Positions 3,161 to 54,495 are shown, numbered from the whole stretch's first letter. The stretch is DNA of 63,939 nt, filler included, from Dirinaria sp. TL-2023a (GCA_051941275.1; 40 parts of 40 records of this genome joined end to end with filler, not necessarily neighbours in it), one strand, 5' to 3'. The notes: generated by a model from the letters alone, not told the origin. Numbers and translations: made by a program.

Positions 3161-3260
3161 NNNNNNNNNNNNNNNNNNNNNNNNNNNNNNNNNNNNNNNN
3201 NNNNTTAATTAATTAANNNNNNNNNNNNNNNNNNNNNNNNNNNNNNNNNNNNNNNNNNNN

Positions 3261-3453
3261 CTAGCGTCGCTTGACAGTCGAGAGTGTTCAGAGATAATTC
3301 TTCGAGGTCTGAAGCATGACTAGCGTCGTCTAGAAGTCAGCGTCGAAAGATTGAATCTCGAGATTAACTAAAAGTCAGTGAGCGATTGACGTTTATAAAG
3401 CATTGTGTCTACGAGCGCTCGTGACTCGTCAGCGCGAGACTCGTCATGATGAG
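3261..3453 (+). mobile_element. Heavily mutated partial copy of LTR family B
   Basis: Aligns without gaps to about 3499-3691, differing only by C->T/G->A transitions. Confidence 0.9.
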
Positions 3454-3865
3454 TGTAACAGTGATATCTGATACATTGATATATATTGACCAATGCAGAC
3501 TAGCGCCGCTTGGCAGCCGGGGGTGCCCAGAGGCAATCCTTCGGGGTCTGAAGCATGGCTAGCGCCGTCTAGAAGCCAGCGTCGAAAGATTGAATCCCGA
3601 GACTAACTAGGAGTCAGTGAGCGATTGACGCTTATAGAGCATTGTGTCTACGAGCGCTCGTGACTCGCCAGCGCGGGGCTCGTCACGGTGAGGCAATGTT
3701 AACGCTCGCGGTTAAGTATAGAGGATCACTCACCCTTTCGAGGGGGGTCCTTAGTGATTAGTTCTAGCAGGAACTACAGTATCAGATAGCCATATAATCT
3801 ATTACACTGCCACGTCTTTCACACAAGTACTGCGCCGACGGGTAACCGACGCATACGACCTTACA
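3454..3865 (+). mobile_element. LTR family B (412 bp)
   Basis: TGTAA...TTACA termini. A full-length homologue is at 44538..44949. Confidence 0.9.
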
Positions 3866-3911
3866 TAGAGATCTGACTCGAGATCTGAGTAATCGAAACT
3901 CGAGAGTTTTG

Positions 3912-4401
3912 TGTTACGACCCTGGAACATCTAAGTAGTAAGATAGGCATTAAGTCTCTTGACTTGGTTTAGTTAGTCTTTTGACGCTGCCGGGACTTTT
4001 ATCATTGGGAAATCTATCTAACCAAGGTTGGGTCTTTGACATTAAATCAAGTCAACACGGTCGCAAGATTCTGAGTTCGATTCCCAGCTCGAACGCTTGA
4101 AGGGTTTTCGGGTTTCGGCGAGAACTTGTGACTGAGAGCTTATCTAAGCTCGAGGCGACTACTGTTCCCTGTTAACAACACTTTAGACTCTCTCTGAAAC
4201 CCCGCGCGTCATGACTCGCTCTGATTAGTCTTGCTCACCGCGGGACGCGGTTTCTCTAGAGAGAGAGGTAGTGTTACGACCCTGAAACATCTAAGTAGTA
4301 AGATAGGCATCAAGTCTCTTGACTTGATTTAGTTAGTCTTTTGGCGCTGCCGGGACTTTTACCATTGAGAAACCTATCTAACCAAGGTTGGGTCTTTGAC
4401 A
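3912..4401 (+). mobile_element. TRIM-like mini LTR retrotransposon (130-bp LTRs at 3912..4041 and 4272..4401; 230-bp non-coding interior)
   Basis: Two direct TG..CA repeats, with a purine tract AGAGAGAGAGGTAG before the 3' LTR. The same LTR occurs at 18017..18146, 43961..44090 and partially at 4402..4443. Confidence 0.9.
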
Positions 4402-4443
4402 ATGCCTATCTTACTACTTGGTTTTGTTTCCAGGGTCGTAACA

Positions 4444-4789
4444 AACTATAGAGATTTAAATAAAGTCATCATCAAAAATCGTCACTCTTTTTCTTTGATC
4501 ACTGAAACTCTGAATCGTCTCTGCGAGTTTAAATGTTTTTCTAAAATTGATCTCAGAGATATTTATCATCGAATTCGAATTAGAAAAAACGACGAGTGAA
4601 AAACGATTTTTCGTACACGTTACGATCATTTTGAGTATTTGATTATGTCATTTGATTTGATCAATGTCTCGACAATCTTTCAATCCTATATTAATAAGGC
4701 TTTAGTCGAGCTAGTGAATCGTTTCTGTATTGTATATCTGAATGATATTCTTATATTTTCTAAATCTCGCGAGTAGAACGTTCTGCACG
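4444..4789 (+). mobile_element. Ty3/Gypsy reverse transcriptase fragment, mutated
   Basis: NYRDLNKVIIKNRH...[38 protein letters not shown]...YLNDILIFS (decayed YLDD motif). Confidence 0.95.
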
Positions 4790-5063
4790 NNNNNNNNNNN
4801 NNNNNNNNNNNNNNNNNNNNNNNNNNNNNNNNNTTAATTAATTAANNNNNNNNNNNNNNNNNNNNNNNNNNNNNNNNNNNNNNNNNNNNTTTTTTTTTTT
4901 TTTTTTTTTTTTTCTGATTCTTTGATATGAAGGTATTCCGATAAATTTTTTCACTTTGCTGAAAATCTCCGTATCCTGATTCTCTACCTCTTCGACCCAT
5001 CATCAATTATATACATATGGTACAATATCCCACCTTGCGTCCACATGGTCGAAGATCGAGTCG

Positions 5064-18016: not shown

Positions 18017-18146
18017 TGTCAAAGACCCAACCTTGGTTAGATAGGTTTCCCAGTGGTAAAAGTCCCGGCAGCGCCAAAAGACTAACTAAACCAAGTCAAG
18101 GGACTTGATGCCTATCTTACTACTTAGGTGTTCCAGGGTCGTAACA
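18017..18146 (-). mobile_element. LTR of the TRIM family (130 bp), no TSD
   Basis: Reverse complement of 3912..4041. Flanks CGCGG and ACAAT differ. Confidence 0.92.
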
Positions 18147-19256: not shown

Positions 19257-19836
19257 GAAGGTTTTCACCGCCAGTGTCATGCTCACCACATTAGGAAAAG
19301 CAGGTGTCTGGTCTACCAAACCTCTTGTCGGAATCTGGTCCACCTTCTCTNNNNNNNNNNNNNNNNNNNNNNNNNNNNNNNNNNNNNNNNNNNNTTAATT
19401 AATTAANNNNNNNNNNNNNNNNNNNNNNNNNNNNNNNNNNNNNNNNNNNNTTACAATCTCATACCAGACGTTTCTAGTTCTGACGCTAAGCCGGAACGGG
19501 GATGCAGTGCGAAATACGTCATAGTCAACCTCCAGCACCATACCACAATACCACAAGGTACCTGCACTTTGGGTATACAGAGCGAAATAGACAATATAAG
19601 AGAATGGAATATTTCTCGCACTTTCTCATCTTTCCTGCCGCTCTTCAGCTTCTCAGTCACTCTTGTAATCTAAGCCGCATCAATCCATCTCTAGCATTAC
19701 CTCAACTAGTCTGCAAGTTCAACCCTTCCTCTCCTCTTACCGCTATCACTATTTGTCCCTCGCCTTATTCCCTTACTACCTTACGTGCCATCTCTCGTGC
19801 GCCTTTCAAACTCTCTTCCACCCATCTACAATAACA

Positions 19837-21457: not shown

Positions 21458-23331
21458 GACGATTTGCGATTGTATTGCCTATCGACGCTGTTTCATTTTG
21501 ATGGACGTGATGGAGCAGAAGCGTTGCAAAGTGCTTGGCTGATGGATCAGAACTTAGTTCCAGGGGCTCAGCAGCTGTTGAATGATTCAACCCTTCTCTT
21601 ATTGCCACATCCTAATCTCTACTATATGTATACTGTATCATCCAAGTGCAGTACTCGCTTAGATCCGCGGATAAGCCCTAATTAGACGAGGTGATGAGGT
21701 TATCTTTAGGCATCAGTATGACGCAATAAGGACTTCATCGGCACTTTTATCTCTCAGAGCTCGAGGCTGCAATCAAGTATGTTGCGTCAGTTGAATGCAG
21801 GCGCAGATATCCCATGTCTCTGAGGAGAAATTTACACACAACAGGGAATGGAATGTGAAAAGAGAAAGGACGAGGTGTGAGCGTAAGAACTCCCTACGCC
21901 TTTCGCAGGGTTTGGCACTAACAAAGTTGTTATGCCTTCCAACTCTAATCACATTCTCCAATTGATTGAAAAAGGAGCGTCAAGTTGCAAAACGCGTGGA
22001 AAAAGGATATCAATAGTAGCCGAGGGTGTCCACGCAGTAGTTTCCTTCTAGCACGGCTTTAACAGCGTCTCATGCAGCTTTGGCAGGTGCTAACTGCTAA
22101 GACGGCTCCCGTCGTGCGTAGCGTACAGAGGCCTCAACCTACCTTATGGTAAGTCCTGGCCAGCGCCATGTACGCCAGACTGTGTCGTCTAGGTGACTAC
22201 AGTTGCCCTTTGATGAGCACAGCTGCTTCCTAGGTAGCAAGTTGGCATGTCCGGGCGATAATCTCGGGGGGTCTCTAGGGCGACTTCTAATTGACCCCAC
22301 TAGCGGCATTGACTACGCTAGCTAGGACTTATGGTGTGAACCTTTGTACACATCGGGAAAAAAATATCAGTGTCAAATTTAAGTTTCCTACGTCATGAGA
22401 GGGAAGCTCGGAAGTTACATGGTGAGGATAGTGGGATCAACGGGATCGGGAAATCTGCATTAAGGTAGATTCCTTACGATTGATGATCGCTTTTGTATAT
22501 AAGCTTGCTGATTTCGACAGCACGAAAACGGAATTGCCGGCTCCTTGTACTGTGGACTCGTGGTATGCNNNNNNNNNNNNNNNNNNNNNNNNNNNNNNNN
22601 NNNNNNNNNNNNTTAATTAATTAANNNNNNNNNNNNNNNNNNNNNNNNNNNNNNNNNNNNNNNNNNNNATTTTGATTGATGCGTTTAATCGTTCAATTCG
22701 ATCAGCACTCACATTTAATGACAATCGATTTGAAATTGAAACTTAAACAAGATTTAAATTTTTGAAATTAATTTTTAAATTGATGACAAACGAATGTGTA
22801 TAAAAATTTCGATTGATTTTTTGAGTTTAACGCAGTTAACGCGAGCATTAACTCGATTGTTTTTCGAATAAAATCGAATTTCACACGAGCATTTTATCAT
22901 GATCGTTTCTCAAACATAGATCGTTAACGATCAAACATGAACTGTTAATTTTTTTTCGATCAATGCTCGTTATGCGACGATTCTATTAATTTCGTTAACA
23001 TATTAACGTTTTACATACGAAAACAAATAAATCGCGCATAAAGTAAATTTAATCAATTTGAAATTTTTCAAATTATTTTTAAATGAGTTTTGATCAAAAA
23101 ATTTTTAAGAATACAAAATTTTTGATCGACATTAACGAAAGAAATGATGATTTTAAAATTTATTTTTTTACTCAAATATTATCGTCGATGCGAATTAATA
23201 ACGATACTCGTTGAAATTCGTTTTTTTACTCAACAAATCATTCATTGCAATATAAGTCGAAAAATCGATTTTCTATGAGAAATTTCGAATGAAAGAATCT
23301 CACATAAAATAAAATAAAGAAACGATAAAGA

Positions 23332-43038: not shown

Positions 43039-43960
43039 TGTTGTATATATATACCGCCATATCTAATACCACTTATTCATAAATACTAAACACATCAAAT
43101 CCAGTAATGAGGAACAAATATGTAAATGAAAGCTCGTCATTGCCCCCCTCTCCGCTTAGACATCCCCGTAGCACAGCGCTTCACTACCTTAGATATCCAG
43201 CCAGCTGGACAAAACCATACATATTTATAAGATACATGTATAGTATAGTGTACGGATTCCGGCTAAAACCGGCCCTTCCATCGTCCCAAAGGGACAAAAA
43301 AAAAAACAGTGTAAGACTAGATTCATGTATCCATCCGATGATGAGATGTAAATGTAAATTTATTACTAAATTAGAACTGCGCTATCTNNNNNNNNNNNNN
43401 NNNNNNNNNNNNNNNNNNNNNNNNNNNNNNNTTAATTAATTAANNNNNNNNNNNNNNNNNNNNNNNNNNNNNNNNNNNNNNNNNNNNTTTAATCATTTTC
43501 ACATCACAGCTCGTCACGAGACAGACGTTATTAATGAGCTTCTCTCTCGATCGATACAAGATCGTACAATCTTGAGATACAAAAGAACACAGATTCTTGA
43601 TAATTTATCGACGTTTCTCATTAGATACGACTTTATTCAAGATCATCGTTCGCGCAAAGCGATCTCGTTTCGATATCATCTGTGATAAAATCTTCAGAAG
43701 ATCGATCTTTTCATCATTCTCGAATCGTTTTTTTCTTCGCGTCATGATCTTTCAGTCTCTTCGATTGTGAATTTATTCAATCTTGTATCTCTGCAAGCTT
43801 TTCTCAGTGAGGCTAACGCGATAAACTCGAGTTTTGTTCTGAGCAGTTTTGATTTGTGAAGCAGAAACATGCTCGATTTAAAGTCGATAAATTTAATTCT
43901 TCAGTCTTAAAAGTTGTCAATCTCGCTTGATCGCAGTTTTTTTTTCGACTGAAAGACTGC

Positions 43961-44090
43961 TGTTACGACCCTGGAACACCTAAGTAGTAAGATAGGCACC
44001 AAGTCCCTTGACTTGGTTTAGTTAGTCTTTTGGCGCTGCCGGGACTTTTATCATTGGGAAACCTATCTAACCAAGGTTGGGTCTTTGACA
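43961..44090 (+). mobile_element. Solo LTR of the TRIM family with 5-bp TSD ACTGC, inside an older mutated repeat
   Basis: ACTGC at 43956..43960 and 44091..44095. Confidence 0.95.
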
Positions 44091-44537
44091 ACTGCTTGAG
44101 AGATTTTTCTCGCGAGAGTTTGCAAAGAATTGAAAGTAATCGATATAATCGTGCTGAGTAAATTCATTCAAGAATGTCGATCTTTCATTTACAGACGAGA
44201 TGTTCGTCACATAGTTTTGATCATAGACTCGAGTATCGATCTGCGTTATATGCTGAGATCGTTCAATCTCGATGTATCTTTTTATATAACTCTGTCGTCA
44301 GCGAGAGCTGATTCGAAATTGCTTTGTAATTAAGATAACTGATCATTGATCTTTTTATCGAGATAACGACGTATAGCATAAACTATAACATTGTCAAAGT
44401 ATCTCGAGAAGTTCAACACGAATTTGATGATACAATCAAATGTTATCTTCGACAGTGTGAGGTGAAGGGCCTCGTTTAGAGGAGCTGCGTAGTAGAAACG
44501 AAGCTGCAGACTAGGCAAAGACACACCGCGTGAACGC

Positions 44538-51430: not shown

Positions 51431-52915
51431 ATCAACACAAACACTAGACACAAACACCTTCTCTCAGCAAGGATTTGAAGATGTGCTGAATACAGCACAA
51501 AAAAATAATCGGCTAAAACGGTTCCGAGGGAAGAGAAGAAGGAGGTACGTGTCCTCATTCGTGTAAATCTATGACGAGCTGATGATTTTCAGACTAAGTG
51601 GATGTCTAAAAGAGATTCTCTAAATTTGTCTACCAATAATCAAATCCATCATGAATGGAAATTGCAGTGACGCTCACCGAAGCTCCAAAATGCATCAGGT
51701 ATTTTCTTCAAGAATTCTATCTACGAGTGTTTCTCTAACTCATAGTCAAAGAGTTGCAGACAAGGAGAAACCCAGCAAAGAGCTTGAGGATGTGCTGTGC
51801 GCAGCACAAGAGAACAATCGCTTGAAGAAAAAGACAATGAGTGATATTTATTCACACCAAAGCTCTGAGGAGGGAAAGGTAGTCGGCACACTTCTCTTTA
51901 AGAGAATTCTCTATACTGTGCAGAAGAGTTATAATGATAGCGCCTTCGAAAAAAAATTGGACGATATGCTACAACCAGCACAAAAAAAATCCAGATTGAA
52001 AAACTTCGAGATGCCGCGGATTCCTTCACTAATCACTCAAGTCACAATGATAAACAATAATTCGCATCAAAGCTCGCAAGAGCAAAAGGTACTTTCTTAA
52101 TCCTGCTCTCCAAGAGAATTCTCTAATTGAAAATAGAAGGACCACGAGAAAGAAAAATCCAAAAAGGACCGAGAAGACGTGCTACAACCAGCACAGAAAA
52201 AACCTCGATTCAAAGCTTTCAAGAAGAAGAAATCGAATAAAATTGTACGCTTCGTCATTACCCACCAGCTAATTATGAGAGGCTGGCGATTCATAGATTG
52301 AGCCAAGAGGAATATTCTGCACTTCCTCCACCAATGACTCAAGTCACCATGACAGGAAATAATGCACATGAAAGCTCGCAAGAGCAAAAAGTAAGTTTCT
52401 CAACACTTCTCTTCAAGAGAATTCTCTAACTTATGACGAAAGTTTTTTACCAATACCTCTTACCTCGATCATCACACATCATGGCAGATCGCTACTGTCA
52501 TTAAAGCTCGAAAGAGCCCAAGGTAATCTTCCCGAAGATTCTCTTCAAGAGAGTTCTCTAATTGAGAATAGAAGGACCACGCAAAAGAAAAATCCAAGAA
52601 GGACCGCGAGGACGTGCTGACCTCATCACCAAAACAGTCTAGATTGAAAATTTTCTCAAGACCAAAAGGTATTTTTTCAAAATTTCTCTTCAAGAGAGTT
52701 CTCTAATTCGCAATGAGAGTAGAATTCAGACACATCCTTTCAAAAAGAATCGAGCCATGTGCTGCAACCAGCACAGAAAAAGTCCCGGTTACAATTGAAA
52801 AAAAAAAAAGGAGCAGGACAGAAATGTATGTTTCGTCGTCGCCTGTTCTGACATTGTGACGATCTAACAGTTTCCAATAGTCCGGGGAGGAGGAGAAGCA
52901 GAGGAGAAAGGGGGA
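51431..52915 (+). CDS. Multi-exon Lys-rich repeat gene or pseudogene built from duplicated exon+intron units
   Basis: An exon motif (K)xxEDVLQPAQKKxRLK occurs six times, alongside six mutually similar 45-55-nt GT..AG segments. Confidence 0.55.
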
Positions 52916-53390: not shown

Positions 53391-54495
53391 ATGGCCGCCA
53401 CAACAGCTAGCCCTCTCCTTTCTGAACGTATCGAAGTGGTCAAGAAAGAGCTTGAATCACTCACGATTTCCACCAAAGGCGACGAAGAAGCGCGCAAGTC
53501 CCTACTAGCAGTTTCCCAACAGACAACGAATGCTTTGCAGTCGGCCTACGAGGCGATATGGCGTTTCTTTTACGAGGTTAGGAAAGATACATCTCGTGTC
53601 CATGTCCATCCGTTCATGAAATCGAAGGATCTAAACTGACTACTTGCCCATAGCCCGCATTGACAGCCAGCTTGAAGATCGCTTTAGACTTGGGAATCAT
53701 CGAACAGCTGAACAACGCTCAGGGACCACTAAGCGCCTCCACCCTAATCAAGTCAACCGGCGCCGACAAGGTTCTTGTTGGTTCGTCGTTGCTTTGATAT
53801 ACCTCTAAGACTCAATATGCAAAGCTAATTGTGCTCAGTGCGTCTCCTCAGAACCCTCGCCGTCGCAGGAATCATTGTCGAAACCGGTTTCGAAACCTAC
53901 CAAGCCGGCCCCGTTGCTCAAGGGTTTGCTACCACCCCATCCGTCTGCGGGTTCAATTTCATGTAAGCAACCCACCAGCATACATTCCACGACCCAGACA
54001 CCACCCCGTCACTAACTGACACCAACCCCAGATTCGAACTCGGAACCTCCGTCTTCCACAAACTCCCTTCCTACCTCTCCCGCACACACTACAAAAACCC
54101 CAGCAGCTCCCCCGGCCCCTTTGAATACGCGCTCGACACCCCGCTCAGCCTATTCGACTACCTGAAACAGCATCCAGAACAACTGCGCAACTTCAATATT
54201 TTCATGGGCGACCATCGCGCCACGCGAGCGGATTGGTTCGACCTGCACCCCGTCAACGAAATTCTATACTCGGGCTTCGACAACAGCCGCGGAAGCGAGA
54301 GCGTGCTGATGGTGGACGTAGGCGGCGGAAGCGGGTACAATCTTCAGAATTTCAAGAACAAGCACCCGGATGCGCCGGGGAAACTGATCGTGCAAGATAT
54401 GCCCGCTGTGATCGACGACATCAAAGAGTTGGACGAGAGTATAATCCGCATGGGATATGATTTCTTTACTCCACAGCCAGTGAAAGGTATATATC
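53391..54495 (+). CDS. SAM-dependent O-methyltransferase (secondary-metabolism type), multi-exon, 3' truncated
   Basis: LKIALDLGI, RLLRTL, LMVDVGGGSG, LIVQDMPAVI and YDFFTPQPVKG, with GT-AG introns. Confidence 0.93.

Follow-up and report, generated by a model that had tools for sequence, protein, structure and literature searches.

The window, by which we mean the whole stretch of 63,939 bases that was analyzed, is composed of 40 unplaced contigs of 1,467-1,530 bp ordered by decreasing length and does not represent one locus. The contigs are linked by 39 identical 100-base spacers of the form N44-TTAATTAATTAA-N44 (e.g. 1531-1630, 3161-3260, 4790-4889, and 36 more), and distances between features of different contigs are therefore meaningless. 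The third of the 40 contigs (3261-4789, approximately 1.5 kb, unplaced) carries a 490-bp element at 3912-4401. A repeat search returned a direct repeat of 131 nt (3911-4041 and 4271-4401, 95% identity), within which two LTRs were delimited. The 5' LTR (3912-4041, plus strand) is 130 bp long with TGT...ACA termini (TGTTACG...TTTGACA), and the 3' LTR (4272-4401, plus strand), defined by the direct repeat, BLAST, and alignment, is likewise 130 bp. The two are identical at 123 of 130 positions, leaving 7 differences. Between them lies a non-coding interior of 230 bp (4042-4271, plus strand) that is single copy within the window, the longest stop-to-stop frame inside the element being 45 aa.

The interior ends in a polypurine tract (PPT; 4258-4271, plus strand) consisting of AGAGAGAGAGG (4258-4268, 11 purines) followed by T and AG, which abuts the 3' LTR. 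Purine runs of at least 11 occur at a rate of only 0.0013 per base and strand across the window, making a chance PPT at this exact site unlikely. With the primer-binding site (PBS) described below, the parts follow the canonical order LTR-PBS-interior-PPT-LTR. The paired 130-bp LTRs, the 230-bp non-coding interior, and the PPT, all of which had been proposed in a first-pass annotation of this DNA, were confirmed at these positions. No TSD was found around the 490-bp element, the flanks being TTTTG on one side versus ATGCC on the other.

The surroundings of the element are heavily disturbed. Directly at its right edge is an inverted LTR fragment (4402-4443, minus strand), which corresponds to the diverged first ~40 nt of a related LTR (86-88% identity over 42-43 nt by BLAST) and contains a 3-nt insertion. 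Since the right flank is formed by this fragment, a TSD is not to be expected, and recombination or rearrangement has affected the element on one side at least. Following the fragment is a relic of a Ty3/gypsy-type reverse transcriptase (RT; 4444-4789, plus strand) with two in-frame stops, the site at which the inverted LTR had been inserted. Matches of the relic to RVT_1 were weak and below the Pfam cut-off. A homologue search returned 143 of 145 candidates at E<=0.001 (best 2.7e-41), with PF00078 present in most among the matches listed. The two stops are a TGA at a position where relatives have Trp and a TAG, and many Pro and Gly residues are changed, as decay of the CC>TC type predicts. 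A chromodomain was looked for in the ORFs of the window and none was seen. The element thus sits in a nest of broken elements.

A second repeat family, with a unit of 412 bp and TG...CA ends, is also represented on the focal contig (3454-3865) and on another contig (44538-44949), with 92% identity between the two. A truncated copy of the same family (3261-3453) directly precedes the full copy on the focal contig. In the 45 nt following the 412-bp repeat no self-priming site was found, the longest complementary run being 7 nt.

Within the window the LTR is represented by four full copies and one fragment, and the interior by one copy. BLAST of the window at word sizes 9 and 7 yielded no second copy of the interior and only chance matches of up to 23 nt. 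Two of the full LTR copies are solo LTRs on other contigs, with 94.6-95.4% identity to the LTR of the element (BLAST within the window). The solo LTR at 18017-18146 (minus strand) belongs to the same family and has neither a TSD (ATTGT versus CCGCG) nor an adjoining PBS or PPT. The other, at 43961-44090 (plus strand; 43956-44095 including the TSD), is flanked by a 5-bp TSD, ACTGC/ACTGC, from which it follows that the LTR family has integrated at least once. The solo LTRs that had been cited as a sign of past movement are therefore genuine, one of the two carrying a 5-bp duplication.

Alignment of the four LTRs yielded 119 invariant and 11 variable columns out of 130. All 11 variable columns are transitions, 9 of them within CC or GG, a pattern that fits a CC-to-TC hypermutation, RIP-like in kind, of the LTR copies. 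Given this pattern, the 5% LTR divergence is not readable as age. Matches to the LTR were also sought in larger sequence collections. The exact 24-nt LTR end had 0 matches in metagenomes, and a 28-nt degenerate LTR pattern had 0 matches in prokaryote genomes and 0 in viral contigs. A C/T- and G/A-degenerate pattern of the LTR end retrieved 7 loci from metagenomes; the likeness stopped at 24-26 nt in these, and they were rejected as chance matches.

The feature that most clearly distinguishes the element is its PBS. The sequence after the 5' LTR begins with TTAAAT and not TGG, and no TGG-type PBS is present. Instead, the 13-nt PBS TAAATCAAGTCAA (4043-4055, plus strand), located one base past the 5' LTR, is the complement of a segment inside the LTR, TTGACTTGGTTTA (3959-3971, plus strand; LTR positions 48-60). 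It is complementary at 13 of 13 positions to LTR positions 48-60 of the 3' LTR and at 12 of 13 to those of the 5' LTR; the 14-mer originally proposed (4042-4055) scores 13/14. When the LTR was shuffled 5000 times, the longest stretch complementary to the first 25 bases of the interior reached 13 nt in 0 of 5000 cases, with a maximum of 12 observed twice. Furthermore, when 25-nt windows were moved along the interior, a 13-nt run was obtained only in the first ones, and runs elsewhere were 8 nt or shorter. The claim that the PBS is complementary to the inside of the LTR and is not of the TGG tRNA type is upheld by this exact 13-nt run, unmatched in all 5000 shuffles. A search of the window for the PBS motif with up to 2 mismatches returned 9 sites versus 4.26 expected, of which 5 are the PBS itself and the four LTR primer segments. 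At the other four (4457, 30082, 30139, and 53744) an LTR context was looked for and none was seen.

The single imperfection in the pairing has a probable history. LTR position 56 is G in three of the four copies, giving a G.U pair with the PBS, and A only in the 3' LTR, giving a perfect pair. T4047 of the PBS precedes a C and A56 of the 3' LTR follows a G, so that both changes are of the CC>TC / GG>GA type. The ancestral primer and PBS were most likely matched perfectly across all 13 positions, with a G-C pair at this site. Decay of the CC>TC type would account for the single discrepancy between primer and PBS, as well as for the mismatch in the hairpin discussed below.

Pairing between the two segments is also present in the predicted RNA structure. 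In the minimum-energy fold of 3959-4100, nt 1-15 are paired with the LTR end and the PBS region. The energy of the fold is ordinary overall (z = -1.37), being equalled or surpassed by 20 of 200 shuffles. From the position of the primer segment we infer that 3959-3971 would form the 5' end of the genomic RNA. The U3 would then be 47 bp long (3912-3958, plus strand), a value that presupposes a transcription start at the primer segment. For a Pol II promoter, 47 bp of U3 would be very little, and this counts against the explanation preferred below.

The arrangement was compared with that of known self-priming elements. In the partial texts of the sources cited here, the first 11 bases of Tf1 RNA are described as pairing with the PBS, with RNase H cutting between bases 11 and 12 (PMC7175516), and Tj1 is described as having the same self-priming layout as Tf1 (PMC4600332). 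As in both of these, the PBS of the 490-bp element follows directly on the 5' LTR and finds its complement within the element's LTR, not in a tRNA 3' end (PMC7175516, PMC4600332), which is the combination by which a Tf1-type element is recognized in sequence. A PPT before the 3' LTR and a 5-bp TSD in the LTR family are further likenesses to Tf1-type elements, as far as these are covered in the sections available (PMC7175516, PMC4600332, PMC6934838). Unlike the element described here, which has 490 bp and no gene, elements of the Tf1 type are autonomous Gag-Pol-encoding units of several kb. The pairing also differs from that of Tf1 in length, 13-15 nt versus 11, and the RNA start and RNase H cut proposed for this element are predicted ones. 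Taken together, the pairing of the PBS with the element's own LTR supports a self-priming arrangement of the Tf1 type, and our confidence in this part is higher than in the explanation of the element as a whole.

The overall design is that of a TRIM. The element measures 490 bp in total (<1000 bp) and has two short direct LTRs. Its interior is bounded by a PBS of the self type (4043-4055) and a PPT (4258-4271), and the element has no protein-coding capacity, with no frame longer than 45 aa. TRIMs, as described in the accessible portion of a recent survey, are likewise under 1 kb, with two short LTRs and a PBS and PPT around a non-coding interior, and are presumably mobilized in trans (PMC10886601). 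In structure the element qualifies as a TRIM, and it is a candidate member of a family that may have moved as this small unit. Described TRIMs use a PBS of the tRNA type, in contrast to the self type seen here, and the interior is present as one copy in 60 kb. Outside plants, TRIMs are recorded from insects, cestodes, and bivalves, and as Helenus from fungi (same source, in the part available).

A subgroup of TRIMs with Pol III-type motifs, TRIMp3, comprises Cassandra (5S), Helenus (tRNA), and Ajax (5S) according to the excerpted text of Kojima 2024 (PMC10886601). There, Helenus elements are described as TRIMs with tRNA-derived LTR sequence in which boxes A and B are conserved. Fungal Helenus is given there as occurring in Pucciniales and some Agaricomycetes, not in ascomycetes, and as using mostly anticodon-loop tRNA primers, and the same excerpts report no complementarity between the tRNA-like part of the LTR and the PBS (PMC10886601). 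The 490-bp element resembles TRIMp3 in its miniature LTR design and in having a Pol III-type motif, and 5-bp TSDs are also stated for fungal Helenus in the same excerpts. Unlike in TRIMp3 as characterized there, where the small-RNA-derived sequence and both boxes are inside the LTR and can be recognized as tRNA or 5S, only a B-box hairpin is present here, and it lies in the interior. Its main feature, the complementarity between LTR and PBS, also sets it apart from Helenus as described there. The LTR contains no tRNA-derived sequence and neither a box A (TRGCY...YGG) nor a box B (GGTTC), and with nothing tRNA-like in the LTR and a different mode of priming the element is not a Helenus. Placement with Cassandra or Ajax would call for a 5S-derived sequence, and there is no 5S among the 5 matches that Rfam, run at E up to 10, returned. 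The literature searched yielded no account of a TRIM that primes itself. Self-priming is mentioned in passing in the available part of a paper on bivalve TRIMs (PMC6934838), and one Tf1 paper cites TRIMs in its reference list.

We consider it probable that 3912-4401 is a dead, gene-less, TRIM-like LTR retrotransposon of 490 bp from an ascomycete (probably lichen-forming) that was self-primed in the manner of Tf1. Its RNA would start at or before LTR position 48, and the RNA segment UUGACUUGGUUUA would fold back on the site one base past the 5' LTR. The RNase H of a helper RT would cut the resulting duplex, and the freed 3' end would prime the minus strand, as in Tf1, while the purine tract at 4258-4268 would prime the plus strand. 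Gag, protease, RT/RNase H, and integrase would be supplied in trans by an autonomous self-priming Ty3/gypsy element, and integration would leave 5-bp duplications. This copy would later have been struck by the C-to-T hypermutation of the genome at CC. Pol II, or else read-through, is the most likely source of its transcripts, rather than Pol III. Mobilization may have been by a chromovirus, as the first-pass annotation had suggested. The model does not explain the B-box hairpin.

The main rival derives the 490-bp unit from an autonomous self-priming Ty3/gypsy element by a single event of internal deletion or recombination, in which case the self-priming parts would be real and inherited from the parent. 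We regard this as unlikely overall, while taking it more seriously than any other alternative. It would be in line with the copy numbers in the window, where the single-copy interior stands beside four full LTRs and a fragment, and with the lack of a TSD and the broken elements in the neighborhood. The size of the LTRs speaks against it, as LTRs of 130 bp are in the size range of TRIMs and small for an autonomous fungal element. The interior, moreover, retains no coding remnant of such a parent, and the window covers only about 60 kb of the genome, so that a single copy here says little about copy number.

A second alternative retains self-priming and adds transcription by Pol III. The element would then be a TRIM with a split promoter of the tRNA type, having an A box in the LTR, a B box in the leader, and a start near LTR position 48. 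The proposed A box (3965-3976, plus strand), TGGTTTAGTTAG, is part of the primer segment. Compared with the A-box consensus TRGCNNAGTGG, it has 3 mismatches in the 9 specified positions. Sites with up to 2 mismatches to this consensus number 198 in the window versus 201 expected from shuffles, and TGGTTTAGTTAG is not among them. All four LTR copies carry the same string, so its mismatches are not excused by decay. On sequence grounds it is not a promoter match and amounts to no more than the 3' portion of the primer segment.

A T-arm-like hairpin, CTGAG-TTCGATT-CCCAG (4071-4087, plus strand), has 4 of 5 stem pairs and carries the B-box-like AGTTCGATTCC (4074-4084, plus strand), which has one mismatch to GGTTCGANTCC. 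The hairpin is present as had been noted, and its B-box-like motif becomes perfect once one GG>GA change is reverted. B-box sites of that quality number 2 in the window versus 3.26 expected. To place the hairpin in context, the window and 200 mononucleotide shuffles were scanned for 5-bp stems with at least 4 pairs, including a G-C pair closing a TTCRANY loop. Four such hairpins are present in the window versus a mean of 0.38 in the shuffles, and 0 of 200 shuffles reached 4. Dinucleotide composition may lie behind this excess. The other three, at 19713-19729 (plus strand), 22687-22703 (plus strand), and 54027-54043 (minus strand), lie outside any LTR element and are not tRNA-like, which speaks against a promoter role. 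At the empirical rate, the chance of one hairpin on the plus strand of the 230-nt interior is approximately 0.005, a value that is suggestive, though the hairpin was noticed after the fact. In the minimum-energy fold a rival hairpin (4075-4080/4089-4094) is formed in place of the T-arm-like one.

Searches for a tRNA, including after reversal of the presumed hypermutation, were negative. ARAGORN detected 0 tRNA genes in the window at default settings and 0 in the focal contig at a 90% threshold. At 80% and 70% it made 2 and 8 calls in the contig, respectively, one of them at 4026-4096 with an irregular two-base anticodon, and these were set aside as noise. Rfam at E up to 10 gave no tRNA or 5S in the contig (5 unrelated matches) or in 4015-4115 (1 unrelated match). 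Back-mutated sets were then constructed by reverting T to C wherever a C follows and A to G wherever a G precedes, in all combinations, amounting to 16,384 variants for 4020-4100 and 131,072 for 4003-4100. ARAGORN at default settings called no tRNA in any of these combinations, nor in the 16,384 variants of 4020-4100 at 90%, and none in 25 control stretches. At 85%, calls were made in 1,856 of the 131,072 variants, the most common one being on the opposite strand.

Termination signals and spacing are also at odds with a Pol III unit. The longest T run on the plus strand of the element is 4, in agreement with the earlier observation that runs of five T are absent. Such a run is, however, also absent from 771 of 1656 windows of 490 nt (47%), and its absence cannot be read as a sign of Pol III transcription. 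T4 runs are located at LTR positions 68-71 and 86-89, i.e. 20 and 38 nt past the proposed start, as well as at 4105-4108, and no T run longer than 4 that could end a Pol III transcript is present in the 3' LTR. From the start of the A-like box to that of the B-like box is 109 nt, a distance that exceeds the usual tRNA spacing. The sequence does not match the pattern of a type 2 Pol III promoter, i.e. an A and a B box of consensus form followed by a T-run terminator.

Against these results, a Pol III-transcribed origin could draw on the near-perfect B box within its hairpin, the hairpin excess, the 47-bp U3, and the existence of TRIMs with Pol III promoters, namely Cassandra and the proposed Helenus and Ajax (PMC10886601, in the part available). 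A tRNA-type Pol III promoter is nonetheless not supported by the sequence, and we consider this alternative improbable. The hairpin may be either chance or a small tRNA-like relic. As a long shot, the hairpin, 16 nt past the PBS, could be a working TFIIIC site, either within a Pol III-driven self-primed TRIM or steering the integration of a Tj1-like helper alongside. If true, the TFIIIC-site reading would represent a third route to TRIMp3, distinct from those of Cassandra and Helenus, with a promoter lying partly outside the LTR. Of the first-pass annotation, the anatomy, the PBS, the hairpin, and the solo LTRs stand, and the A box and the lack of T5 runs proved to be at chance level; correspondingly, its model of a non-coding LTR-PBS-PPT-LTR unit of TRIM size with a self-type PBS is retained without the Pol III promoter.

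It is very improbable that 3912-4401 is not an element at all and consists of independent or recombined LTRs around host DNA with a scrap of a tRNA gene, or of repeat copies mis-joined in the contig. The absence of a TSD and the inverted LTR fragment at the right edge would suit such an origin, a mis-join is possible because the element is on a short unplaced contig of 1.5 kb, and Tj1, a self-priming relative, is reported to target Pol III genes (PMC4600332, in the part available). A 13-nt self-complementary PBS and an 11-purine tract located exactly at the LTR edges would be unexpected for host DNA, and the 7 differences between the LTRs show that the pair is not a single collapsed repeat. 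Least probable of all is that a cellular tRNA primes the PBS through an internal stretch or a half molecule, the mode used by Ty5, copia, and most fungal Helenus, with the LTR match being secondary: anticodon-loop primers are attributed to fungal Helenus and Copia in the excerpts of PMC10886601 and the window has 0 tRNA genes with which the PBS could be compared, but an exact 13-nt complement in the element's own LTR (p < 1 in 5000) and the failure of Rfam to find anything tRNA-like in the LTR argue against it.

Returning to the self-primed TRIM-like element, confirmation of the family genome-wide would mean that miniature non-autonomous LTR elements also parasitize self-priming chromoviruses in ascomycetes. 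Such a TRIM would carry its own primer and need no tRNA match, and it would offer a small and clean template on which the sequences needed for self-priming could be tested. At present, the element is one decayed, single, rearranged copy, and all its features are expected from known biology in the expected host group. It is a tidy but largely expected example of self-priming, all of whose parts are known biology, and the more exciting Pol III claim finds no support.

Repeats and coding sequences elsewhere in the window were also surveyed. A 120-bp repeat pair in 51431-52915 was considered as a second miniature element and rejected, as the region is an irregular tandem array. It comprises direct repeats of 37-115 nt at spacings of 130-580 nt and is not an LTR element. 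Among the ORFs in other contigs of the window are one with a fungal rhodopsin domain and one with a Copia-type RT. A 529-aa open frame extends across the whole of one contig (37055-38641, minus strand) and has a strong match to a Copia-type RT (RVT_2, E = 1.6e-33), suggesting that it may derive from a less decayed Copia element.
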